A stretch of 62,911 nt of DNA, counting the filler, from Bipalium vagum (Eukaryota), in NCBI GenBank assembly GCA_037834085.1. It is 3 parts of 3 records of this genome, joined end to end, with 100 filler letters (N's around TTAATTAATTAA, not from the genome) between each part and the next. Parts side by side here need not be neighbours in the genome. Positions count along the whole stretch, not along the records: positions 46,166 to 62,911 come from JBBMKC010096098.1; 2 more parts are not named here. One strand, 5' to 3'. Shown here one piece after another: positions 9,775 to 62,911 of the stretch; within the stretch, counting starts at the first letter, position 1; each line of letters opens with the position of its first letter. A model generated the notes under the pieces. It saw only the letters and a list, made by a program, of their open reading frames with translations, was not told where the DNA came from and did no database searches. The position numbers were made by a program, and so were the translations under genes.

Positions 9775-12372
9775 TCCGGTGTTCATTGTGCACAAAATAT
9801 AAATTGTAGTTGACTAAAAAACCGATTGAATCTGTTAACAGTCTAATTTATCATGATCAATCAATTGGTGTCTCTCCCTAATCTTGCCTTCCCATACTCA
9901 CGATCCAACCAAATTAGGTAATTAAAGAGAGACTTTCATATGCTCAGAAACTCTCCCTTTTAGCATAATCCGTTGTGTTATTATCTTCAAAATTTTGACA
10001 CCCCTCTTAATTAAAAAGTAATTAAAGGGATATCTTGGTGATGAAGAATTAAAAAGATATGACTATCATTTATCCATTGTGAGGCCTGCAGCCCGGACCC
10101 CAATTACCATAATCACCATTAATTGCAAATTGTCAAATTTATTGACAAATTGACTTTAAAGTTCTCTGATTACTTTTTGCCGTGAGAACATCAGATAAGA
10201 TTTTCGTTCAGTACCATTTAAACAAGCTTTCAAATCTAGGAGTAAAATGGAGCCCTTTGGAAATGATTACGTAGGAGGCTCTATAACTAGAAGGATAAGG
10301 CGTTATTTTTATTAAAGGAGGTCAGGTGTTCCCTTGTCAAATAGTTCTTGATAAAGATATTGCACAATTTCTCAGGGTTATCTCGAAACAAGATCAAAAG
10401 GTAAATAAGAATTATAATTAATTAATAATAAATTTCCATAATTTTGGGTGAAAAAAGGTTTTAAAATTTCAGAAATCGAAAAAAAGGTAAAAAAAATAGT
10501 TATCATTTAAACCATATCGATCCACTTTTTACCCAGATAATCTCCTGTCAATTTTCAAATAAAATCGTTATGCCAACCCGGAAAACATTCTTGCAGCTTT
10601 TGGTGGAAAATTGTACCACACATTCTATATAGAACTGAGCTTTACTCCCAGTGACTTCGGCAGAGATCTCAACAATCTGATTGTGATAAGTCCATTTTAT
10701 AACGAAGATCAATAATCCCTTAACCTTCCAAACTCGTTTACTCTTCAAAGATGTGTGTGGTCTGACACAACCGGTCTTCCCACTTCTTAGATTTGACTTG
10801 GCAGTTTTAAACCTTGATCTAATCATTTTGATTGGTTACAATTCACATCAGAATCAATAGTTTTATTGTACGGCAGAATTTCATATTAAAAGCAAACTAA
10901 TAATAATTAAATAAAATATAATTTCGATGCCTTTATAAAGTACAAGAAATACTTAGTTTATATATGAAATTTTTTGTTTAAATTGATATTATTTTTAAAA
11001 CAACTCAGCAATTTTTCAAATTAATAAATTGATAAAAATTCACGGCTTAAATTCTTAAAAGATAATATTATTTTATTATTTGGGATTTTTAAATATTTTC
11101 ATTTGCTTTGAACGAGAATTATCACAGATATTTATCAAATACATAATATAAATTATTATCATTTGAGGTTTATTAAGAAATAACGGTTTATTTTCTGTTT
11201 AATGCGCTTATTGTACTTTTTATATTGATTAAAAAATGCAAATAATTTTTTTTAATAAAAATATATATTAAAAAAATTATTAAAACATTACTTAAAGGTT
11301 TTTTGATAATTATTAATTTTCTTATTATTTAATTAATTAATTTATTATATTTTAATTAAAATATAAATTTTAAATGAATCAAATAAAATAAATTTTTAAA
11401 TTTAACATTTTTAATTTTTAATTTTATGTTTTCTTTTGTTTAAATAAATTTTAAATTTTTAATAAATATTTTCAAAAAATTATTACTATTATATTTTATA
11501 AGAAGCGATTCATATAATTTTTTAAAATTTTTTTAATTTTAAAAATTTTAAAAAATTATTAAAAATAATGCATTTTTATTAAAATAAAATTCAAAATTCA
11601 AAATATAAAAAAATAAAAAATATTTTATAAATATATTTATTTTATATTTTTTAAATTTTGTTTAAATTGTGTATATTGATTAAAATAATTATCTAATTGA
11701 AATTAAATTATTTTTTTATTTATTTTACATATTTTTTTAACATTTAAAAAATGAAAATATTTTCATAAAAAATTAATTAAAATGTTACAAAAATAATTCA
11801 TTTTAATTGAATTTATTATTGTTAAATAAAAATCCAGTTAATTAATTAATTAAGTTTTTAAAATATTATTTAAAAATTCGCATCGGTAAAAAGATTATTT
11901 TGAATATAAAATAAAAAAATTATAAATTTAGTAAACAAATAACACAAAATTAAAGGCTTCTACTCGAGACGATGAAGGGAAAGTCTTTGGAGAAATTAAA
12001 ACAAAAAAAATTAATTAATAAAGATTTCCGGTGATGTTTTGGTCTAAACCCACCCTTCAATTTCAGAAGAGAGATCGACTTTTATTTAAAAATATAAAAA
12101 AATAAAAAATGGACGAATATATAATATAAATAATCACAATATATTGCCCGCGCAGTTCTAATGATACATAATATAAACTGTTTACACTGGCCCTTCTTCA
12201 AAGGTTCCGCCGAGGAATGCTGATAAGCTTCTATATTTAACAGAAAATTTGGCAGTTTCATTAATTTTATGAATAGTTTATAATAAATAATAATTTTTAT
12301 TTTTTGCTTTTTATTTTTTTTTATTGTATTAAGTCTTAAAATTATTGTTATTATCAATTATAATATTTAATA

Positions 12373-12745
12373 ATAATTATATTATTATTACAATTATTAT
12401 TACTATTATTATTACTATTATTATTACTATTATTATTACTATTATTATTACTATTATTATTACATTTATTATTACATTTATTATTACATTTATTATTACA
12501 TTTATTATTACATTTATTATTACATATATTATTAGATTTATTATTACATTTATTATTACATTTATTATTACATTTATTATTACATTTATTATTATATTTA
12601 TTATTACATTTATTATTACTATTATTAGTAATATTATTATTATTACTATTATTAGTAATATTATTATTACTATTAGTAGTAATATTATTATTACTATTAT
12701 TAGTAATATTATTATTACTATTATTAGTAATATTATTATTACTAT
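12373..12745. repeat. AT-rich minisatellite with 12-bp units grading into a 24-bp unit
   Basis: (ATTATTATTACT)n, then (TTTATTATTACA)n, then (ATTATTAGTAATATTATTATTACT)n. Produces low-complexity ORFs on both strands. Confidence 0.95.
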
Positions 12746-14169
12746 TTGTATAGTTATATTCATGAGTTCTCATTTTCAAAACTAACATTATAAGACCAAA
12801 GCAATATAATGTATTTTAGGAAATCCGATTATTTCAAAATACTTTTTGAAATTATAACTCACTCATTTTTTTAATTAACTTTTTTTGCTTAACAAAAATT
12901 TATCAATTTTATATTGCTTTTTTTTATTTAGAATTCTTAAATTAAGTTTAACTAAAAATATCTAATAACCAATCAAAAAACTGTAATTTATAAAAATTTT
13001 AATAATTTTCAAAACTTTAAATTATAAATATTCAAAAACCGTTAATTTTGGTGTGCAGTACTTAGTTAAAAAAATAATCTAAACAAATTGTTCGAACCAC
13101 TTCTTAGAACTATTATTATTACTATTACTATTACTATTATCAAGAAAATTAAAAGAATAAGTATAATAATTAGAAAATTATAATAATTAAAAATAAAATA
13201 ATAATTAGTTACATTGCTTTGTTTCGATTTTTCATATTTTATACAGATAAATTAAATTATGTATTATGTGATTTTCGCAGAGACCAAAACGGAAAGGATA
13301 ATTTCCACAGCTCAGTGATCATATATGTAAAAAAATATGTATTATAAATGTTTAGAAAAAAATATACAAAATCATTTTTGTTTTTTTGAATTAAATTTTT
13401 CCTTAATTTTTTCAAAGAATTTTCTGAAAATTTTAATTTTTTATGAGTTTGATAAGTATTGATATATTGATATATATTATATATTGATATACAAAAATTT
13501 TAAAAATTCGTCTGATTTAATATTAAAACAAAATAATATGCACAGATTACCAAAATAATTCATAATATTAAAATTTAATTGTTTAATATCCAATTTTTAA
13601 TTATAATAAATTATTAATAATTTTTTATTATGTTTTTACACATTATTATCCAAAAAAAATTTATTTTCCCCATTAAAATATCTTCAAAGGTAACAAAAAA
13701 TTGTATACCTAATATTTTTCTGTTTTTTATAAATTATTTTTTGTTTTAAATTAAAGAGGATTAAAATTTACGAATGACAAAAGTTTTCAATCGATAAATT
13801 ATAGTTCGACATTGTTATTGATTTTTCATATTTTCAGACAAAAATATACGATTTATCCATAGGTAAAAAAAATAAACTTGCAGATTAAAACAATAATTTT
13901 TTATAATTCTTCCTGTGTGATTACATAATTATTATAGTTACAGAAATTATCAATTATTATAATGTTTAATATCGATTAGTTAAAAAATTAAATAATAAAA
14001 AATATTTATGAAAATAATAATAATTGTTTTATTGGAAATTTATCTAAAATTATAAATTATTATTTAAATAAAAAAAGGATATATAATTTTTTTCTCGTTA
14101 AATAAATTATATTACATATATTATTATATATTATTATATATTTATATATAAAAAACATTTTGATATGAC

Positions 14170-35944: not shown

Positions 35945-37072
35945 TTATGGTGTCCCATAAAAATTGACCGTTTCTGATATATCAACATTAAAGCTAAATA
36001 ACGTTTTTTTAAAGAATTAATTAACTATTGATTTTTTGTATAAAATTTTGTATAAAAAAGATTGCTTAGAATTAATTTATATATATTTGTTTTATTATTC
36101 ATTTTAGCGCTCAATTAAAATGCCTACAAAATATGAAATTCTTGTAATTCTTCTACATTATTGGAAAAGACAATTGTCAGCTGTTGACTCCACCAGATTA
36201 ATAGTAGAAGTTGAAGGTCCAAATGCGCTCAATGAGAGGAAAACGAGGCGCTGGTTTTCAAAATTCAATTCCGGTCACACCAGCCTCCTACGTGCAATAG
36301 GTTCTGGAATACCTTTGATTTTCAAAGACGATGATCTAATGGATTCTATAGAATCAGGTCCTTCTCAATCGACTCGAGAATAATCATAGGTCATTCAAAA
36401 TTCACAATTCATCGTCACCTTCGTACTCTTGGCAAAAGAATACAGAGCCCCTTGAATGCACCCACATCAGCTGACAGATGCGCAAGTTGATAAACGATTT
36501 CAAATTTGTCAAAGGTTGTTGGATAACCCGTTAGACAAGGGTTTTTCCAAAGAATTGTCGCTATGGATGAAAAATGGATCTTCATTAATAATCCACACAA
36601 AAAATGGCAATGGTTATCAGCAAACGAGTTACCTGGTGGCAGAGTACAGTAGATAGATTTGGAAAGAACATGATTTCTGTTTTCTGGAACTACAACTGAA
36701 TTTTATCTTTTGAAATTCTTCCAGTTGGTCATAAATATTAATTCAGAGATCTATTCTGCACAATTGAATCGACTTCACCAGGTTCTCATCAAAAAACATC
36801 CTGCTTTAATCAACCAGAAAAGAATTCTATTGCAAGCTGACAACTCTAAAAAAACTTTGAGAACATGAATGACCTGGAAAAGTAAGTGCCTATCGATGTT
36901 TTTTGACTCTAAATCTCAAGGATAGTATGAAAATGAAATTCTCAAAATTGTAGAACATTGGCCTCTTGTTTGTGAGAACGATGGATTTTATTTTACTTCA
37001 TAATTTCATAATGTACAATAAAAATTTTGTGTTGTATTTATTGAATTAAAACGGACATTTTTTATGGGACAC
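35945..37072 (+). mobile_element. nested mariner with TIRs
   Basis: TIRs gtgtcccataaaaattgaccgttt / aaacggacattttttatgggacac. ORF 36120-36383 MPTKYEILVILLHYWK...RRWFSKFNSG, then PHQLTDAQ, IVAMDEKWIF and NQKRILLQADN. Confidence 0.9.
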
Positions 37073-37941
37073 GAATTGCACGTGCTAATTGATGAAGAGC
37101 AGTGTCAATCACAAAATGAGCTCGAGGAATTGTTAAGTGTTCATAGAAGAAAAATTTCCGTTCGTTTGGCAGCAATAGGAAAGATTTATAAAGAAAAATG
37201 GTTGCGAACTGAAAGAAAGAGATATTGAGAGGCGGAAACCCATATGTGAAATCTTGCTAGAAAAGCTAAAAAGGAAAGGGTTTATGCACCGTATCTTGAC
37301 TGCAGACGAAAATTGAATATACTAACAAAGGACAGAAATCCATTTGTGAACCCGAACAACCGACCACATCGATATCAAAAAGGAACATTCACAACAAAAA
37401 AAGTATTACTCTGTATTTTGTGGGACCAAAATGGTATAGTGTATCACCAGTTTTTAAAAAACGAAACTATCACAGGCAAACTTTATGAACAAATGATAGT
37501 ATTAAACCAGCAATTGAAAAGTAAGTGGCCGGAATATGCAAACAGACACAAAAAAGTTATCTTACAGCACGATAACGCTTGACCACATATTGCGAAAGTT
37601 GTTAATGCCACCTCGGAAATTTTTAAGTGTGACGTTTTACCTAACCCACCTTATTCACCGGATATTGCTCCGAGTGATTATAACTTGTTTCGATCGATGA
37701 CACACGGACTTTCCTGTCAGGACTTTTGGTGAAATAGAAAAATGGGTCAATGAATAGATCCCTTTAAAAGATGAATCAGTTTTTCGTAACTGACTTGCCG
37801 GTCAGATGGGAAAAAATAATAGCAAACGATGGCAAATACTTTAATTAGTTTACATGTGCCTTTTTTTCGAAAAGTCTTTTCATATTATTCTAAATTGTAT
37901 TTTAATATGTAAAAACTGACAGAATTACTTCACACACCTAA
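37073..37941 (+). mobile_element. 5'-truncated Mos1-like mariner with right TIR
   Basis: ELKERDIERRKPICEILL..KRKGFMHRILTADE, KVLLCILWDQNGIVY, KVILQHDNA*PH, PPYSPDIAPSDYNLFRSMTHGL and NDGKYFN*. TIR gaattacttcacacacctaa. Confidence 0.92.
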
Positions 37942-46770: not shown

Positions 46771-47339
46771 TCGTCACTACTGTTGTCAATTTTAATTACT
46801 TTCAAGTCTCCTCTGATCTTCCAATATTTACCTCTGCTATCAATATGATTCTAATACTTGTTCTATTCTGTTCTGTACTACTTGTCTCATTTAACTCAAT
46901 TTTTCGAGATTTTTGCCGAATCCTAATTCTTATTACCCAATAACCATTATATAGTCCTTGACAACCACCTGACATTAGTTCAATAAAATTTACTCTATCC
47001 ATTTCCTCAATTGAAGGTGATAGACGTCTTACACTTCATATGCAACTGATATTTTTAAAATAATAATATGAGCTATAATATTTCATTAACAAAAACATTA
47101 AGAGTCATTGTTCATACTCTGTACATACCTCTGCGTACAGCCACAACGTCTAAACATTGGATTGTCCCGCTTGCTGAGGAGAAATAATCCAGTCGTATCA
47201 TTGTCGGTAGTGAAACCTTTGTATAGCTCGATCAGTTTTGAATTTTGCAACTTTCTTAGTTCTCAGTGTCATGCATCCAACGGTATGCTTATTTTTTCAC
47301 TTTATTTCGGTCTTCGTCTTCTAATTCAACAGGGATATC

Positions 47340-47785
47340 TGCAGAAAGTTATTTTGAAAAGTGACAGTTTTTTGCCAAAGATGACTATGATTCGACATTT
47401 ACTCATTCTCAAACACAAAATCCTTTTTACTGAGTCAACTCCGATCAAGCAAGAATATATAAACAACTATATGCGCTGGAGGTGGAGATCAATCAGATAA
47501 TCATGGATATGCTAAAAATCGGAAACATAGAAACAAATTCGTTATCTTGGGCATAAACCAATAGTAATGAAGAGAAAGAAAAATATTTCAATTCGGATGT
47601 GTGAGACTAGAGAAAGGCAAACGAAGTGAGCATAAAGGATACATATCTAATATCAACAGTTGAGATGATTTTTGAAAAGATTAACAGGTCGACGATATTT
47701 ACAATAAGGATACAACCAGGTAGCCATGGACGAGGATAGTGAGGATAGCATGGGTTTTATGACAAGTGAAGAATTTTATATACTG
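47340..47785 (+). mobile_element. Gypsy (Ty3) reverse transcriptase N-terminal remnant
   Basis: LKHKI..TPIKQ...LEVEINQIIMDMLKIGNIE..LSWA*PIVMKRKKNISIRMC..RKANEVSIKDTYLI...GYNQVAMDEDSEDSMGFMTSEEFY. Confidence 0.85.
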
Positions 47786-49665: not shown

Positions 49666-52600
49666 TTAATTGTGTGATTTGAAATTTTTTATTTCTCCAA
49701 GAATTTCTGAAACAAAAATAATCATAAAAATAATTAAAATAATAGAACCCGTCAAAAAGTTATTTTCATTTGAAGGACAAGTAATACATTTATACTCTGC
49801 GGGAACGTCTTCTTCAACGTACTGTTCTAGAATGGACTTATGTCTCAAAAACAATGGAGATTGTATAGCATTAACAGGAGTTATTCTTTTATCTGGATCT
49901 AATTCTACCATTTGCATTATTAGATTAATGACTATTGATTATCATGATAAAGCTCAAAAACATGAATTAATCAATACCATCATCTGCTTCACATTCCGAA
50001 CCACTTCCTACAGCGTCGACCACTAATAATTGATCAATATCAGTATATCAGAAGATAGTAAAGTTTAAGTTGATAAATATTAATAATTTCATAAACAGAA
50101 ATTAAGATAAATCTATCAAATATTAAAGGCTGCATAACGAAATTTGATATACAAAGTTCTAAACAAATCACGAAAAGAAAGATTTTGGTAATCATAATAC
50201 CAATTATTAAAAAAATGCTTGATTTACTGACGGGTTTGACCCAAAAAATACAATTTGGAAACATGGTTTTGAAAATAATTCGGAAAATCTTATTAATCAA
50301 ATTCTAAAACAGGTTCTATCGTATTTTTATAACAATAATAATATTAATAATAAAATATTCAACTTCGTGGTATCAATTTTCCATGTTTGTTTAGGACATT
50401 CAAAAAAAAACAACGTGGGCAATTCAAAGTCAGATTTTATTAATACAGTAAAGAAATTTTTTTTTCCAGAATGTAGGGCATCCAGAAGGTTAAATATTAA
50501 ATTTTAGATAAATGAGTTTGCTGTAATCAATATACGACTGTTTTATTCATTAACAATGTCTTGGAGAATTTTATTATAGGAAATAAGCTTCATAAATAGC
50601 TAATATAAATAAACGCTCGTTAAAGTAACTCGTCGTCTGTTAACGTATTGAGATTGGTTGTTTTTCGAAATGAATGATTATTATTTGACATGAATCAATT
50701 TTTCCAAGTTCCTGAAGTCTACAATAAACTTATAAAATCTAGTAGGAGACTGTTCATTCAAAAGCGAAAGTTTTGGTTACTCTTTCTTTATTTTTAAACA
50801 ATTGCTTAAACATAAATTTCAGATAATCGTAGTTAACTCTTTGCATGAAGTATAATCAGGTTTTAAGACGAAATCCATTGTTCCATGTATACGATTTCTT
50901 CTTTTTAAAAAACATTGTAAAGGTCAATTTTTAATGTGAGTGAAAAGATATAAATGAGTACAGAAGTTATTTTTTTTAATATTTTTGTTTAAAATAAGCT
51001 ATTTAAACATGAACATAGATTGTAGAAAATAATAAATATTTTATGATCATACTATTTGGTAATATCCGTTAGTATCTATCAATGTATTTCAGTAAATTTG
51101 TAAAGACAGACAGTAAATATTATGTATTATTTTTAGTAGTTATTATCAGAAATGAATCTTACTAAAATTGATTATTTCGGGTCTGATAACGCTTTCTAAT
51201 TTATTTGATGTAGCAGCAAAACTTTTGAATAATGTTAAACCCATAACAGCCTAATTTTACCAATTTATAATTGAAAAAAGCTATAAAATATAATACATCT
51301 TTATTATTCATTTTATTAAGCATGTCTTCTTCCGGCCAACCCATCGTTTTCAGGATACATTTTGATTGATCAGTTTGATTCTTTCCTTGAAACAAAACCT
51401 TTTTGGTAAAAAACTCAGTAAATATACAGCCTGCTGACCACATATCCACTTAAATTTTAAATAAAATTGAAAATTTATAAAATAAAGTAAAAAATACTGA
51501 AAATTTTCAATTTCAATTAATTCAAATAACAAATATATTCATTTTTAACAAAAAACATTGATTTTCATTTTATCAATAAAATAAATATTTCGGTATACTG
51601 TTTTTGATTTTACTGATTATAACTTTTAATTGGTTATGATTATTAAATCAAAATTTTTAAAAACAATAGTTTAATATTAATTTTTTTACTCGTCGATTCT
51701 TGCTATCAAAATAAATTATTAAGATCTCTAGTTTTTCTTTAAAACAAGGACTTCTGGTTACATTCTTCAGATTTCACTGCTTGCATTTCTCTCGCAATAA
51801 TATTTTATAGAATTTTATAAAACCTGTATTTATTTATTATTTTATTTACTATCTGATAGATAAATTCGTTATGTATAAAATTAAAAATATTCAAATTAAC
51901 AAGTTTTCCTATTTTAATAATCATAAAACTTACGGTTCTTTTATAATAGTTTAAAACTGATAGATCAATTTATAAGTAGCATTTTACTAAAAAATTTAAA
52001 TAATATACATAACATAGAAAAATGAATATCTAATCAAGTAGGATTAATAAATTCGAATGGAAATACAAGTAGAAGAATTATATGTGAAATCTGGCTCTTT
52101 AAACAATTTGACTTACTTTTCGTCTTTCGTGTAATTTAATTAAAGGTATTCTTGCTATAAGTTTTCAGAGAAACCTATTGATTATAAAAAAATTTCAGAA
52201 AATTCAGCTATACCACAAATGAGATAGTCAAATGTAGAACTATATTAATTAAAATATGTAAGATATTTTGATTGTGGCAAGAATTCAATCAGTATTTTAT
52301 CAAAATTTTCAGTATTTTAATTTTAATAATCAATTGAAACTTAAACTTTCGTGTCACAAACATAATACAATAATATCATAATCGTAATATTATTTCTACT
52401 TACATAACTACTTACAATATTTGAGTAATTCAAATAAATAATAAAAATTGTTTATTTTCGATTAGAAGTTTATAAATTCACATTATTGATTGACTTTTGT
52501 GACCACTATACGTGTATTGGATCAAATATGATATCTTTTGTTTTATACTAAGGTGTAAAACTATAATATTAACTAATATTATCTATTGAAGAAAAATTTA

Positions 52601-55600
52601 TTAAATAAAATGTTTAAATATATTTTTCACTGAGATTTCTAAAATGATTTCTTGAATAATTTTAAAAGACGAAAAAATTTAGAAAAATATGGATTTTCCA
52701 GTCTTACCTTTCAACAAATATTCACAAGATGAATTTAAGGTATTAGGACTGTTAATAACTGGAAAAAGAATACTGTAATAGATTTGAAAAACAAAATATC
52801 CAAATTAAAATATTTTAATTATTAAATATAAGACTAATATAGAATCAGTAAAGAAAAAAATCGTTGAAATATAAAAAGAATAATTAAAAAGACCTAGTCA
52901 GAAACTGATAAATATTTACCTTAACTTTAACCTTTTCTCTTATTGACAAATCAATTTTGAAAAAGTAAAAGATAATAAGCAGATATTTCTGATGGCTAGT
53001 TTTAAGTTTAACATTAAAAACTGTTGCTCTAGTAGTAATTCAAATCTATATAACAATAACTTTTTAGATAAATAAATAATAAAATACAAATGTACAAAGT
53101 AATCAAATGATAATTAAATTATATAAGTAGTGTGTTTTGATAAATAAACTGTATTATTATGATTTTTCATAGAATATGTTTGGACAACCCAAAGTCTCCA
53201 AATTTTAAATAAAATTTCTTTCTTTTTACTTAAAAAAAACAAAATCATTAAATAAAATTAGAAAATAAATTAAATTATTCACGGAAAAAGTCAATAATCA
53301 CAAGTATGATCAATAACAATATTCAAATTTTAAAAATCTGAAGAAATTTAAGATACATAAATTGTACATTTAAAATATAAAATATTTGAATTTCTAAAAA
53401 TAGTAACGGAAAGTCATTGACTTAATATTCCAAGCAAAAATAAATATTTGAAAGAAAAAAAACAAAAAAACTGAATTTGAAGTAAAAATTGGCTTATCTT
53501 TAGTCATAATACTCAACAAAATTGAGATATATTTCATACCAGTTTAAAATTACCCATGAAAAGAGAATCCATCCTATTTATCTTACAGACACAAAACAAA
53601 AAGGAAAAAAGCTTTAAAACCTAAAGTTTATCGTAAAAAGTAAACTAATGATTAAAACAAAAATTATTATATGAGTTAAATTTAGTTATTTTTGGGTCCA
53701 AAATAAAATTAGGATAATAATAACTTTTTATATAAACAAATGGTACTCTGCTACTCTGCTAACAAAATTAAATTAATATTTGATGAATCGATAACTATAT
53801 TTATTTATTTAAATACTGAAGCTTGATAAATATATAAGGAATTAAATAATGTAACTAAAATCTTAGTTTAGTTAAAATTTAAAATTATACACACTTATTT
53901 ACTATTGAGAAATAAAAATTTTAAATAATTTTTGATTTTTATCAGGTAATTTATTAATTTATACTTCTCAAGATAATTTTTATATAATTAAAAATTAAAA
54001 AACTAACAATTAAATATTAAAAATTACTAAATTTTAGAAATTTAAAATGTTTCAAATTTTAAATAGTAAACTTAGATTTTAATACAAGGTGTTTATTGTG
54101 TATGTTGACATTTTCTTTTGAAACTATAATTGATAAAATTTGTTTATATGAATTAGAACAAAGGTTGAAAAGCTACGGCGACCAGCATATAAAGTTGAGA
54201 CCATATACTGATGTTAATTTTGTGCGATTATAATTTTCGACAAATTCGATTATTGATCAATAATTTTAAGATTTAAATTTTTACATATAATTTTATAATG
54301 AATACTGATGTGCACTTTGACAGATACACTGTCATGTGAAAGTAACCTTGAATAAAACTTTAGGCTTTGTTTATTATTCTAGTAACAGGCGTGGTAGACG
54401 ACCCTGAATTTCGTACACTTAGTTAAGTTACTCGTACTCATGGTTGGTGTTTAAATCCTAAGTTATACTAAAATTTTAAATAAGAAATCTAAATATTAAT
54501 ATTTCCCATTTGTAAAGGGTCTTTAATTACAAACACTAGAAATATAATTACGTTTTTTATTTGACAACATTTGACTTATATTATTGAAATTTACATTTTT
54601 GACCAAAATTTTTAGACATTTATTTAACTATGATTGCTACCAAGAAAAGAAAGATTGAGGACGAGCAACGAATTGTTAATGACTAATAGACTATTTAGTA
54701 TTGCTTTGTGTGCCGTGAATAGATGAGCATCTGTAAAGAGTGCAACTTAAATGCAGCATTAAATGAAAATTTAGGTTTCGGCTTAATATAAAGAACAGTT
54801 TTAACTAGTCTTTAATACATGATTCTACAACTTCTAATCATTATAATAATTCATTTAAATAATTTTTAAATGTAATGTTTACTAGTTTTCCCATGGAATA
54901 AAAATTCAAGTTATTCTGTGAAATGCCAATTTTGAAAATCTTAAGGAGTTGATCTGCAAATAGAAGCAACATTTTTCACCCAACCATCAAGTAGACAAGC
55001 AATAAAAAATACCGGAAAAGTTTAAGAAAACTAGTAGAAAAATTACTTAGACATAATACATAATAATATTTTTCTTATTTAATAATGTATTACAATTTCT
55101 TAAATTATTTTGAACAAACAGATCATCAAAAATCCAATATTCTTGTTTCAGTTAATGTATTTTTCATCATTTATGTAAAATTAGAAGAATTAAGGACGTC
55201 GACATTTTGAGTGAACTTACAAAAACTTTTTGCATCTTTTAAAAGGTCATATTTTTAAACTATCTAGTAAAGATTTTTGAAAAAAATGGAAAAGTTCGCG
55301 CAAGGCACCACAGTTGTAAAGAAATAGGAAAGTTTTATGAAAAATTTGATGAATCTTTTTTGAAAAATTTTTGTTTTAAGAGTATCCTACAATCTACAAA
55401 CATACATGCACTTTTACCATTACAAATATTGATGCATAAATTCTGTTTGTTTAAAATGAAAATTCAACTGTTTTACGACTTTTTGAGTTTTCTCAATTTG
55501 AATACTTATTTTTCTGAGAAATTTTATCCATATTGAATATTTATCGCAACTTTTAAAGTTTTTTCGTGGATCTTTAATGAGTTGTTAATTATCTTAATTA

Positions 55601-58600
55601 TTATTATTATCTTTTTTTTGGTTGATCACCTTGATTATCTTTTGGACGCAAATCTAGAAAATTTGTTTATCTATAGTTTTTCTACTAAAAAACCGCAATC
55701 CTTTAATAAGCTAAATTTTTAAAAAATAACATTTCTAATAAGCCAAGGGTTATATGGGGAAATGATAAATTATATACAAATTATATATATTAAATATAAA
55801 GAACAGTAAATTATTTTGTTATTATTAATTAAATCAGCTAACCAGCCATAGTGTATTGAGATATACAGAAAACTTCAAGAGGCCGATACCATCTTGTGAC
55901 AACATAATCTGTTAGATCATCTTGTTTGTCTCTAGCAAGTCCAAAATCAAGAATTTTTAAATCCAAGTTATCATTTATCCCAATATTTGATGGTTTCAGA
56001 TCCCGGTGAATAATACAACAATCGTAGAGGTACTATAATTAAAAATATAAATCTTTTTAAATGTTAAAATTATTTTGGTTTAAAATAAAATATTTAAAAT
56101 TTAATTCAGCCTACTGATAGTTGACATACGAAATTGTTTTTGAATAATTTTGAAGAAAAAAATGAAGACTATAAGAGTTCATCTGTACTATTAATAGAAG
56201 TAAATATTTTCTTATTTATTAATAAAGTCTATGTTAAATAATAGTAGGCATTTAAGCAATTAGATAAATATTATTATAAAAAGAATTTGAATTGAAAAAT
56301 GTTCACTTTAAACAATTCATGAATATCGACATGTCATACAGTTGAATATATCGGTTATTTTTATTGGCGTGAAGTATAATTATATACATAGGAATATTAA
56401 CCAATTTAATAAATTATCATAAGAAAGCTGTGTTAGATGGTGTCAAGAAATTTTCAAAGATTACATTATAAATCGTTCAGAATAAGTCCACAATATTGTC
56501 ACTAATGACAAACCTATATTCATTTGTACAACCTGAATATTAAGAAACTATCCTGTGAATAAGTTACTAAAAATTATTCGGACTAATAGAAAACCGAGTA
56601 AATTTCATTTCGATTAAAAAGCACTGGTAACTGTGGACTTAAATTGAAGAGCTTTCATCAATGAATAATATATTATTTTCTATCAGAATTCATCTGTGAA
56701 ATTGGAATTGGTCTAAATTAGAAAATTATTCTTCATCAAGGCAATGTTAGTTATCAACAGACGAACCAAAAATTTATTTCTTGCTTAGTATAATGCGGAA
56801 TTTTATCCCAATCATTTTGTTCTCTTTCATTTAAGGTAACATTCGACTATAGTTCTGAATTTACTCTTAGTAATATGATTCGGAATATTGAAAATTCATA
56901 TCTTAAGTCAAAATCAGTACTTACAATTAAATTCTAAATGGTTATAATAATAAATCCAATACACTTTATAAAGTTTATACTGTAAAACATGTTTCTAGGA
57001 TATTCAAGTGTGTTGATATCAACGATAATTAATTTTAAAATATTTTTTCAAGGCTTAAATGTTTTGTCAAATACTAGATTCAGAACATCAAACAGCAGCC
57101 AACTTATGTATAAAAGGAAAATAAAAATAATTACCCTTTAAAAATTTAAAAATAATTAGAAAATATCTCGATAATAAATAAAATATAACATTTTAAGAGA
57201 AGATTTTGAGAAAATTAACATTAATATATAAAACTCACTTAGATTAGTGGATTATTTTACAATCCAGAAAGAAATATATTGAAAACATTTCTGTTTTTAA
57301 AGCGAATGATGTTTGACCAGCGACTAAGTTTTCATTAAGATATTAAGTGATAAGAAAATTTAAAATATTAATTAGAAGAATCTCTAATTTTACTAAATAA
57401 TAAAAATGAAATGAAAATTATCTCTGTATATTTAATAATTGTCCTGTAAGATATGATATAATAATTATTGCTTGCTGTACGACCTTATTGAATTTGTGGA
57501 TTTGGTTTACGAATTACATATTGGTATCAATCCCAAATCTAAAAACCATTATCCATATTATGATTCAATATATTTATAATATTGAATTCTTGAACCAAGC
57601 TCTCTTATTTTAGAATAAATTTTATTCACACTGATATATTTGTTTTTAATTTCCAAATAACAAAAATTAGAGTACTCTTTTTTTTTGGAAAAGTTACCAA
57701 TAAACCAGGAAAAAACTTAGGAGACAACTGGAAAAGCGTTAGCAGGATCAGATAATGAAAAAAGTTCAAAAATCGAATCGATAACATCAGCAAATTGGTT
57801 TATTTGTGTTAATTTTTAAAGATCAGAAGAATAGGATTAAATAATTGGTCCTATTTCACGGAATTGATCCCAAATCAACAATAAATCAAAACAATAATGC
57901 AAAAATGTCTAAGAAAAAGACAGAATTAAGTGAACTCAATCGAGGAAACCCGTGAAAAGCCCAAACTTTGGGAATTATCTGACTAACTGAAATAATAACG
58001 CGTGCAGTTATCTTGTTTCTTTCATAAAACTAGAATCCAGAGTGTAGATCTTTTAAAATTTTGATCGAGGTTCCTGAAAATTGATATTTTATAAACTAAA
58101 AAAATTTTCCCCCTAATTTCAAAATTCACTCCTTTAAATAAACCTCCGGTATTTCCCATTGATCCAACGAATTCTCCTTTTGTTTCTATTCTTTTCAATT
58201 TCATGACATCTTTCTATTTTTTTCTTCCTATAATGAAACTTTAATGAACTCCAAAGTTCTCAATAGCCTTTGAATTTGATGAACTTAGACCATAACTCAC
58301 AGCTTACAGTTTTGATTGCAATTTATAAGGCCTTCGCTTTTTATTTGACATAATAATCATCTCAAAATTTTCTTATAATTGATATTTTAAGATATTTGTA
58401 TATATTACCTTAGGTACTATAATGTACTTGTTATTCTTAAAGTTTAATAAGGATAAGATAAGAATATTAATAAAATAACTCAGTTAATAATCATAATTTA
58501 TTAAGAAAGTAGCTTAGTAAAATGTAACTAAAATTTGAGCAGATATAAAAATTTACTAACCTTTTAGCTTATAACCAAAAAAACATGGTAATTGTTCTTA

Positions 58601-60535
58601 AAATTATTTACCATATAATTGAATAGTTCAAATGACATTTTTCATTATTATGTCACAAATATTCAATTTATAAGATGTATTTTAATATATATTACTTTCA
58701 ATAGGTTTGAAGTTTTTTAACATAGATTTTAAAAATTATTTAGAATTATTTTGATTTAACTGTCTAATTTTCTGACTGTGGGATGTTACTGACTGCAAAA
58801 ACCTATCAATCCGGGTACGTATCTAAAGCAAGACATTGAGACCTATCCATCAAGTGCCTGGTAACTCCGATGCGCCGACCGACAACAACGTTATGAAACA
58901 CAAAGTCTGGCATGAATACAAGCAGGGGGAATATTTACATATTTTTTATAAATTTATTTAATAATGAAACAGATATTTTATTAAAAATCACTAATATCAA
59001 TTAATCTTCTCGTGACATCCGTTTATAAAATTCATAAGTTGAAAATATATAAGGTATATAGAGGGGGTCCATAAAAAATATCGTTATTACGCATTTTGTG
59101 TCGTTAATTACTTTAAAAAAATGACATTTTTAATCAACCTCTCTATAAGTAGTATACTTTTAATCGGTTCAGTCTGGTACATTTAGAAAATAATATTAAA
59201 ATTAATATGAATAAATCGAGTAAAATCGAATAAACTAATTTTTGATTCAGAATAAAAAAATATTATATTTGAACTTTTTGTACACAATTAGCTCTTCAGT
59301 TTACCAAAAATATTAATGAAACAATAAAGTTTTAAAATTCATGTATATGTTGAAATAAATATCGAATTTTTAATTTAATGTTTTAAAAAATTTTGTAAAA
59401 ATTAAATTAAAATGATAGATTTATTTATTCAATTTTCTAAAAAAACTTATCAACTTCAAACCTTAATTATAACATTCTTAACTTGTAATAAATGGAATAT
59501 GTTAATAATTTATGTGAATCAAAATACGACCATGCTGACAGGTAATAATCCAACAAGGACAAACAATTGTTAACCGTCAATTATATAAGTTTACTTAGTT
59601 CAATTACATTTAAAATATTGAATTATTAGAACTTCTATTAATATAAATATTTTATCGATTATTGATGGATTATTAAATGAGAGTAAATAGATAAACGTTA
59701 TTTATAATCATTAGTCAAATATCAATATAATTATCTTTTTTAAAATTTAATTTCTTTTATTTAAGTTTTCAAAGCATACTTTTCTTAGAGTTCCAATGAA
59801 ATAATTGAAGTTTTCAAATGCAATCGAAATAAGCAGTTAGTTCATATATTATATTGTAATGTAATTTATTAAGGTTTCTTAAAACCACATTGTATAAATT
59901 AGATTTAAGACATTTAGAAATAAATTTAGTTTTCATCAATATGAAATAAGTCATTTATATTAAATGAAAAATAAGAATAATGAGGTAGAAAATAACTTTT
60001 AGCGAATATTATATATTTATCTAATAAAATTATTATACGTCACTTACATTTAATCCCATCAATAACTGATAAAATATTCGAATAATCTGTTGATAAATTA
60101 GATTATAATTTCCGATGACAAATTTCAAATCATATTGCATTAAAGGAAGAACTAATACACTGAAAAAATAAAGTTTTACAAAAATAAATATTAAAAACTA
60201 ACACTTCTGTTAATTTTTCATTATCATATTTTGAATATAAATCCAATAATGTAAGGTTCTGTGAAATATAAATTATTTTTCATAAAAAAACTACCATACA
60301 AATCGACTGTTTAAATGCTTAAGAATACTTATTTCACGATAAAGTCTTTTGAATTGATCTTTCCTCGGATAAGATAATTTTATACATTTAAGAGCCACTT
60401 CAGTACCATTTAATTTATATATACCACGACTTTGAAAAATATGATACCATAGCTGAAAATTAAATAAACTACTTACCTCACATTACCACCGGTTCCTCCT
60501 CCGATAAAATCTGAAATTTCATATTTATATGACAT
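49666..60535 (-). CDS. p38: p38-family MAP kinase with atypical TDY activation motif; 10 exons, ~351 aa
   Basis: Manually spliced exons, all GT..AG and phase-compatible with no internal stop: 60477-60535, 60300-60429, 60203-60258, 60048-60159, 55843-56032, 51297-51448, 51163-51250, 49978-50022, 49749-49931, 49666-49706 (1056 nt). Protein: [59 protein letters not shown]...[11 protein letters not shown]...[100 protein letters not shown]...[21 protein letters not shown]...KSHN*. The 6-residue spacing between DFGLAR and TxY is p38-like. An additional upstream exon cannot be excluded. Confidence 0.92.
50330..50950 (-). mobile_element. Tc1-like remnant in kinase intron 7
   Basis: Decayed RK..P.L....RL.F and SPDLN-like pieces. 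Confidence 0.4.
54880..55040 (+). mobile_element. DD41D-like N-terminal remnant in kinase intron 5
   Basis: FPME*KIQVIL*NANFEN...QPSSRQAI...KFKKT. Confidence 0.45.
59057..59147. mobile_element. ~90-bp mariner-derived MITE in kinase intron 4
   Basis: tatagagggggtccataaaaaatatcgtt / aatgacatttttaatcaacctctctata are inverted ends with TA termini. Confidence 0.6.
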
Positions 60536-60829
60536 AGCAATCACTGATTATTCAATTATTCTTATGAATTACTAATTATAAATTAGTAATGCTAAATTTA
60601 AACAAATTTAATGATTCGGCTTAAATGTTAAGTAATAAGAGTAACAGACTCAAATATTATATTTTGTATTTCAAACTATCATATATGATTATATTATAAT
60701 TTTTATATATAATAATCCTTATATTTTTAATTATTAAAATTTACAATTAAATAATCTAATTGCTTTCTAGTGTAGATGTAAGAAATATAAAAATAATAAT
60801 TATTAGTACTTAACGATTGAAAAGTTTTT

Positions 60830-61553
60830 TAAATCTAGTACTTTAAAATAAACCAGTTTTTAAATTAAGCGTCTTTAAAGTCAACACGCTTTTAGATGTG
60901 ATCAAACCATTTTTTAGAACATATTTCTGAAGTTTTTCAAATTTTCCAATGGCTTTTTCAGATACATAATGTAATTTCTTTTTGATTGTTTAGAACAAAA
61001 AGAAATTGCAATTGAATTTGTTGGCTGGTCGTGATCTTTTAGCCCAGGATTACTAAAATAATTTTACTCTATCTTTCGTTATTATACTTTCCACAGATCC
61101 TCTCGATAACTTTAGATTCTCAGCAAAACCTGCAATAGTCATTCGTCGATTCTCCTGAATCAATTTCTCAAGTTATTAATTTTCTCATTATTTGATGTTG
61201 ATGGACAAACATCTCTTTCTTCATCATGCACAGATTGGTGTCCCCTTTTAAATTCTGATACCCAGAATAGTATGAATGGCACTTATCTTATAAGCTGTTG
61301 AAAGATTGAACAGAATCTCCTGTTAGGATTGGCCTAGCAAGTTAGAATCTAATGGCACTGCAATATTCAACTTTTGAAAGGTTCTCATCAGACAAGCACA
61401 TATTTAAATGTGGAGATCAATAAAATAAACACACACGAATGTATTCCTTCTTAGTAAGTACCACACACTGATAATTTTTAATGATATACCAATTTTTTAA
61501 AAATTAATATGCTTATTAGGCTTGTCCAGAAACTTTTTAAACATACCAATTAT
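60830..61553 (-). mobile_element. internally deleted irritans-like mariner upstream of the kinase
   Basis: FWVSEFKRGHQSVHDEERDVCPSTS, SYRGSVESII and C-terminal KRVDFKDA*F. Confidence 0.8.
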
Positions 61554-61569
61554 ATGTGCTTTTCTTCAA

Positions 61570-62120
61570 ATGAAACTAGCATTCACTAGGTGAGCCTCAA
61601 CATATTTCTGAGTTTCTTCAATATCCTGCTTAGTTTAAAGTTCACCTCATGTCAACCCCTCTATTAATAAATGCTAAATTTTAAATCGCTTTCAATCTTT
61701 AATCGCTGCAGCCTTTTAGGTTGTTTTCTTCATATCTGGTAACGTAATATCTACATATTTTTCTAATTTTATATATCGGTGACATGACTGATCCACTTTT
61801 TAAAATCTGGGGTTTCGATTCCTTCTCTAACAAAATCCTAGTCATTGATGCCACATAACGCTTTTCGTTATCCCACATGACTGGTAATTCATTTGTGCAT
61901 TCACCTGTTTTTCTGAACTGGACAATCACTATTGTATATTTATAAATGTGTATAACTTCTCCCATCATCCTGGCAAACACAACTTGATCTGGTAACAACA
62001 TGAACGCTAATAGTTCCGAGCTGCTGATTATCATACCAAACATAATTTATTAAAAATGATACATCTGTTAAGATCCTAAAAAGTGATGTAAGTAAGTGAA
62101 GCTTACTGTGATTTTAGGAC
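61570..62120 (-). mobile_element. endogenous viral element: chuvirus/gB-like fusion glycoprotein (env) fragment, decayed
   Basis: ORF 61699-62043: SELLAFMLLPDQVVFARMMGEVIHIYKYTIVIVQFRKTGECTNELPVMWDNEKRYVASMTRILL...VMSPIYKI, continuing after a frameshift as EGLT*GEL*TKQDIEETQKYV. This matches the remembered chuviral G pattern GEV.HI.KC.PV.V..R.T..CY.ELPV..N....L.P.TRIL...C....P.Y.I ... LA..GIYT..DL. Confidence 0.75.
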
Positions 62121-62911
62121 TTAACGGCGAAGGTTGCTCAATGGTTGTTCGAATTTATTATTTTAAATTACTGAGAAAACGAATTATTTTAAAAACTTTT
62201 ATTTTTATTAAAATAAAATATTAATTTACAATATCGTGATATCGTGATTTTGAATTTGTTGTGGGTTGATGAACAATAATCGCTATTTTTTAAATTCTTT
62301 AATTTCAGCTTTAATTTCTGATAATATAAAGATTTATATTTTTTCTGATTTCCTACGTCCTTATTCTCCTTTTATACTATTATTTCTGCCTGATTTTCAT
62401 AAAACAGCAACTTTCTTGTTTCATCCAATAATTTCCTTATCTGTTTTGTTACTAATTAAAGTTTTATCTGTTATTCTTTCTTTTTTGAATTAAAAAATTT
62501 CCTCTATTATTCATTTATATTAATATTTTGTTGCCTTCTCTTAAAAACTTCCAGTATCCAACTCTTAGAATAATAATTTTTACACTTTTAATTAATTAAT
62601 TATATAATTTATTAATTTATTCATATTTACATATTGTTTTACTATTTTTCAATCAAGGAAGACTTTTGCAATTATTTGACTATCAAAATTATATTTAAAT
62701 TCGTCTAGCTTTTGAAAAATACCAGAATTCAAAACTAAAAAAATTTCTTAAATTTTCTTCTTTTCTTTTAAAAACAATAATAATAACATGTAGAAAATAT
62801 GTAAAAAACAGTAAAATATAACATGTAAAAAAAGAATATTTATGGTAGTAGCTAGTCAATGGAAGGTCAGGTTTGAACCCAAAAATATACTTTTTTTTCT
62901 GTCCACTATAT

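Follow-up and report, generated by a model that had tools for sequence, protein, structure and literature searches.

A decayed chuvirus/gB-like env fragment, very probably left by a gag-env-pol Ty3/gypsy retroelement

Results

Features of the locus

The window, by which we mean the whole stretch of 62,911 nt analysed here (GC 26%), contains a remnant of an env gene and, on the same strand about 1.1 kb beyond it, the first exon of a divergent MAP kinase gene with an inferred start at 60535 (Table 1). An initial annotation of this DNA had placed the kinase about 1 kb away, which agrees with this distance. The introns of the kinase measure several kb each; its best exon is 56-69% identical to MAPKs, and the best 120 of 932 matches span animals and protists, which is not diagnostic of a phylum. 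The same annotation let the env fragment end next to a mariner at about 61553. A mariner relic is probable here from a weak SETMAR match, while Pfam returned no match in this region; the summed contig depth in sequencing run X1 is raised at 61082-61543 within the relic, indicating multi-copy sequence in that run. The reverse transcriptase (RT) remnant listed in Table 1 gave no Pfam RT match and is probably a separate insertion. Neither tRNAs nor Rfam families were found in the window.

Table 1. Positions of the features in the window
Feature	Position	Strand	Remarks
Long AT-rich triplet-like simple repeat	12333-12815		spurious ORFs in several frames
Mariner transposase relics	36108-36380 and 37250-37579	+	HTH_48, Transposase_1
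Decayed gypsy-type RT remnant	47338-47721	+	tblastn E 8e-6 against the env-pol relative P0011; opposite strand to env, 14 kb from it
Divergent p38-like MAP kinase	49669-60535 (approximate)	-	TDY lip; neighbouring host gene, outside the element
Probable mariner relic	60900-61553 (approximate)	-	between env remnant and kinase; SETMAR match weak, E 0.067
GL..G.L.T.QDI piece	61620-61658	-	another frame; two stops; plausible by eye
Env continuation	61673-61764	-	frameshifted into two other frames (61748-61719, 15.0 bits; 61726-61673, 14.5 bits)
ORF	61699-62046	-	115 aa between stops; 114 aa counted from the ATG at 62043; last ~21 codons beyond in-frame homology
Core env remnant	61765-62040	-	92 stop-free codons; by prediction covers the end of gB domain III plus some of domain IV
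Repeat 5' of the env remnant	62245-62590		summed depth 780-1077 against ~23 (run X1); no Pfam match

A decaying fragment of a fusion glycoprotein gene

A profile search, proposed in the initial annotation as a check, gave a significant match of the ORF to Pfam family PF24664 (Monjiviricetes_fusion; E 5.4e-12; score 44.9 bits, the threshold being 27 bits) over profile positions 356-422 of 653, and no family match in the other minus-strand frames over 61300-62500. The motifs GEVIHIYKY, RKTGECTNELPV, NE..Y...TRILL and P.YKI all lie inside the 114-aa ORF in the order described earlier. Homology between the ORF and its relatives is firm solely over about 62040-61765. The relatives' alignment has three Cys columns in this core, of which the env remnant has lost two, as had been noticed from the sequence: Tyr at 61938 replaces a Cys retained in 35/38 relatives and Ser at 61797 one retained in 35/36, whereas the third column holds Cys in 38/38 relatives and in the env remnant.

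A frameshifted continuation downstream of the core had also been described, and it stands in part. A stricter frameshift-aware test, which was run first, gave the downstream extension 4.0 bits (1/60) and the upstream extension 0 bits. Against the env profile, the score of the colinear piece 61748-61719 was equalled at 1/400 random places and, with the piece 61726-61673 in another frame, the best colinear pair at 7/400. The motif GL..G.L.T.QDI is present, but the best segment of its region scored 5.9 bits against the env profile with a null mean of 8.1, which is chance level. An extension upstream of 62040 is likewise at chance level (79/400 random places as high), and no second env piece was found elsewhere in the window with the env profile, the runner-up reaching 3.3 bits.

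The locus thus holds a real fragment of a chuvirus/gB-like (class III) fusion-protein gene, and frameshifts, stops and the loss of two of three Cys mark it as a decaying copy, as first proposed. For the same reasons it fails to provide the uninterrupted ORF by which an intact errantivirus is recognised (PMC13524379), and the env remnant is probably a relic of an errantivirus family rather than an intact member.

Searches beside the env remnant detected neither gag nor pol nor an LTR, and LTR-like repeats were absent both at 58000-62911 and by self-comparison. Since the copy lacks these neighbours, the window stretches 870 bp beyond it on the upstream side and the probable mariner occupies the downstream side, we infer the parent element from its relatives only. 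In X1, the single sequencing run that contains the stretch, summed contig depth at 80% likeness was 3829 at 61775-62005 and 2254 at 62006-62236, compared with about 23 for single contigs, and ten contigs with another letter span 61982. This suggests that the env remnant has paralogues, the summed depth being neither a copy number nor a demonstration of an intact element.

Gene order in the relatives

Relatives were gathered by their likeness to the query in a full phmmer scan of 1.84 billion protein representatives. The ORF had 29 matches, 27 of them with PF24664; P0003 and P0029 were discarded as repeat-protein noise. PF24664 lies N-terminal to a retroviral-type protease in the same ORF in 7 of the 27 relatives, and three of these seven also have RT and RNase H (P0011, P0013 and P0020), with an integrase following in P0011 and P0013. 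In P0010 a zinc knuckle precedes the env domain. Full-length stand-alone G proteins (P0016, P0021 and P0027; 563-698 Pfam bits) rank below the env-pol relatives, the best match of this kind having E 5e-5 to the ORF. As the stand-alone entries are unnamed, we infer their designation as chuvirus-like.

A metagenome scan yielded nine loci (L001-L009) from 112 pattern matches; four of the loci (L001, L002, L003 and L009) are too short for a reading of gene order. L006, L007 and L008 are single ORFs of 3426, 3703 and 3184 aa, respectively, with env ahead of protease, RT, RNase H and integrase, and in L007 and L008 zinc knuckles stand before env. In L005 env is followed by the protease. In L004 gag comes first, with Retrotrans_gag and zf-CCHC upstream of env; its env ORF is at zero distance, in a quick tree, from P0030, a cluster mate of the best match. 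An LTR-like repeat was sought in L004, L006, L007 and L008 and not found, save for one 74-nt repeat in L008.

The pol located 3' of env in the relatives is of the Ty3/gypsy type by Pfam and by the RT motif. YIDD is the gypsy-type form of this motif and contrasts with Pao; it occurs in all eight RTs examined. Peptidase_A17 and DUF1759, which we take to be BEL/Pao-specific families, were absent from the 29 matches and from the 14 further ORFs that were scanned with Pfam in L003-L008, and viral N or L families were absent from the same set. P0011 and P0013 have hydrophobic peaks on both sides of the env domain.

Several polyproteins of the relatives (P0002, P0010, P0013 and P0031) contain more than one aspartic-protease-like domain, P0031 (4844 aa) has an additional ankyrin match, hydrophobic segments occur 3' of the integrase, and L006-L008 carry an extra ORF of 460-610 aa without a Pfam family. 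P0011, an env-pol polyprotein of 2627 aa, is assigned in its source to a Flavobacteriaceae MAG, which likely reflects animal DNA that was binned with a bacterial genome.

Other searches added little. A word-index search of the ORF against longer proteins matched none of 107 candidates. The env domain of P0011, compared with shorter proteins with the aim of finding a named chuvirus G, gave one match, unnamed, among 7732 candidates. A PDB sequence search with the ORF returned chance matches only, and an IMG/VR scan with the 92-aa core matched none of 27 stretches. The top ESM Atlas scores, 0.87, were reached by DDE_3 clusters that had roughly half of the features in common with the query, and were dismissed as noise.

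Placement among env and G proteins

Over 92 columns, the env remnant is 29-62% identical to the env-group relatives and 18-33% identical to six stand-alone-type rows. P0007 is the most similar (62%, over 53 columns), and the group of L001-L004, P0001 and P0030 reaches 42-49%. A quick tree was built from 37 env/G domains, without P0001, P0007, P0003, P0029, P0031, P0032, P0153, P0155 and L009; it placed the env remnant in a clade (support 99) with 13/13 envs in a retroelement context and 0/5 stand-alone G. A more careful tree took 20 of 39 rows, restricted to the env remnant's own 92 columns, and included four rows without known context (P0004, P0006, P0007 and L003). Here the six stand-alone-type rows split from the other 14, env remnant included, at 100/99, and P0007 was sister of the env remnant at 89/85. 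The stand-alone rows of both trees are unnamed G; named chuvirus, Anakin and Tas sequences are absent from them.

AU tests rejected a nesting of the env remnant in stand-alone subgroups in four of four cases (p 0.020, 0.030, 0.030 and 0.0035), the subgroups having been named post hoc after inspection of the tree and two tests having returned the identical value. A sister position of the env remnant to all six stand-alone rows was not rejected (p 0.15). The phylogeny called for in the initial annotation joins the env remnant to envs in a retroelement context, without rejecting this sister position. Profile scores agree in direction: the env remnant scored 82.2 bits with a profile of 13 env rows and 54.6 bits with one of five stand-alone rows, and 20 draws of five env rows gave 69.1-80.5 bits. 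In a profile-profile comparison E was 1e-48 to P0013 and 6e-32 to P0021, the query profile consisting mostly of env-type rows. By trees and profile scores, the env remnant probably belongs with the envs that gag-env-pol elements carry, apart from stand-alone G.

Predicted fold

The model of a full-length relative, P0009 (pLDDT 72, pTM 0.46, 22-row alignment), matched herpesvirus gB with a best E of 7e-14, and its best match among viral models was a chuvirus-type G, that of Tacheng tick virus 4 (E 5e-40, 22% identity). For the env remnant's own model (pLDDT 76.5), gB chains stood in the ten best Foldseek rows, none of them significant (best E 0.15), and in the five best VIA rows. The best VIA match was domain IV of PRV gB (residues 504-616; Z 4.5, rmsd 4.4, 88 aligned). 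These matches are weak yet concordant. Because they agree, the env remnant is predicted to be a domain III/IV part devoid of fusion loops or anchor. In gB the fusion loops and the anchor lie outside domain III/IV. This layout is also described in section 6 of PMC13524379.

Discussion

Very probably the env remnant derives from the env of a gag-env-pol Ty3/gypsy retroelement ('errantivirus') and has since decayed; it is likely inert. The parent element would have made a single polyprotein in which two hydrophobic segments flank the fusogen, and its own RT and integrase would have inserted the copy here. Deletion and later insertions, among them the probable mariner at the 3' edge, may then have trimmed the copy to a few hundred bases, after which it would have decayed neutrally. 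The surviving piece would not fuse membranes, because by prediction it comprises domain III/IV only, without fusion loops, signal segment or anchor; with fusion loops, membrane anchor and adjacent gag, pol and LTR all missing, the copy is likely inert.

Elements of this kind have been published. [quoted passage not shown] The same paper describes six errantivirus families of Schmidtea mediterranea (Smed_errantivirus_1-6) with 1-215 intact copies, single published families reaching 45 and 215. Their env is of the gB type, as in the fragment. They also share with the fragment's relatives the motif YQES, a short motif in a domain missing from the fragment itself. YQES is present in the env domains of 8/15 env-group relatives (a ninth has YQER) and in 0/5 stand-alone G, and in four rows of the ENV supplement of PMC13524379, all Schmidtea (Smed_1, 2, 3 and 5), where shortened cells and alignment gaps may hide more. 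As this supplement has domains I-II only, it permits no direct alignment of the fragment with the Smed sequences. In contrast to the Smed errantiviruses, the copy described here is a fragment measuring about 0.4 kb, and a search of its flanks revealed neither gag nor pol nor an LTR. The non-canonical endogenous retroviruses of nematodes (Sacco et al. 2022, doi 10.1099/jgv.0.001739) can be likened to it by the title of that paper and the account in PMC13524379: env stands before pol and the glycoprotein is related to RNA-virus G. With herpesvirus gB, a class III fusogen, the full-length relative is alike in fold and the fragment model aligns to domain IV of PRV gB, whereas identity is about 10-22% and the fragment has neither domains I and II nor the membrane anchor.

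The initial annotation had left open a chu-like infection of the host lineage and an env-bearing retroelement, with chuviruses and BEL/Pao elements as sources of the glycoprotein. The family assignment holds, from the PF24664 match and the gB-like fold of a relative, and a retroelement is the likely carrier, of the gypsy gag-env-pol kind. A direct endogenisation, in which the G mRNA of a chuvirus-like virus (Jingchuvirales or other Monjiviricetes) was turned into DNA in trans by a retrotransposon of the host, is very improbable. Stand-alone G match the ORF too, the family is the same, no pol was found beside the copy, the sister position to all stand-alone G survives the AU test, and a chuvirus G ranks first when the relative's model is compared with viral folds; yet stand-alone G are less identical to the env remnant and give the lower profile score, trees and AU tests speak against nesting in their subgroups, and N and L families are missing from the relatives' scanned ORFs. 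G-derived elements of Chuviridae/Jingchuvirales and the Anakin BEL/Pao elements (Dezordi et al., PMC10084718, PMC7642597) share the family PF24664 and the fold class and also occur as solo fragments like the env remnant, but the fragment groups apart from the unnamed chuvirus-like stand-alone G, and its relatives have gypsy pol, not Pao. A BEL/Pao env of the Anakin or Tas type is highly improbable: although such elements carry this glycoprotein family and leave solo relics (PMC7642597), the BEL/Pao-specific Pfam families are absent from the scanned matches and ORFs, YIDD is found in every RT examined, and the relatives place env ahead of pol.

Retention of a gypsy-derived env piece by the host, as a short domain-IV peptide, as a source of piRNAs directed at the family or as a sequence that regulates the kinase, is very improbable. 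The 92 homologous codons are open with an ATG in frame, env remnant and kinase share a strand, and co-option has been proposed for solo glycoproteins of mosquitoes (PMC7642597). Two of three conserved Cys are lost, however, the ORF leaves the frame of homology, and the probable mariner separates the env remnant from the kinase. Assembly artefact or contamination is hardly credible: five N gaps in the window, all outside the env stretch, and the occurrence in one run only, possibly the window's own source, would fit it, but a single 713-nt contig covers 61503-62215 without difference or gap at a depth of 23.6, alike to the 23.3 of a 12-kb contig over the kinase.

We therefore regard the env remnant as one more decayed copy of a kind of gypsy element already published. 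The novelty suggested for it at the outset is low, because such elements are described for Platyhelminthes, Nematoda and Bryozoa in PMC13524379, and its importance would rise only with a host from a group that lacks known env-bearing elements. That the host belongs to a group without recorded env-bearing gypsy, outside flatworms, nematodes and bryozoans, and carries a high-copy gag-env-pol family of the gB type, with the env remnant as one relic, is unlikely; if true, retroelements with a gB-type fusogen, potentially infectious, would have a wider range of hosts. Likeness to PF24664 or to a chuvirus G in the genome of an invertebrate does not by itself record an infection by a chuvirus, since this domain is also spread by gag-env-pol gypsy elements as they retrotranspose.
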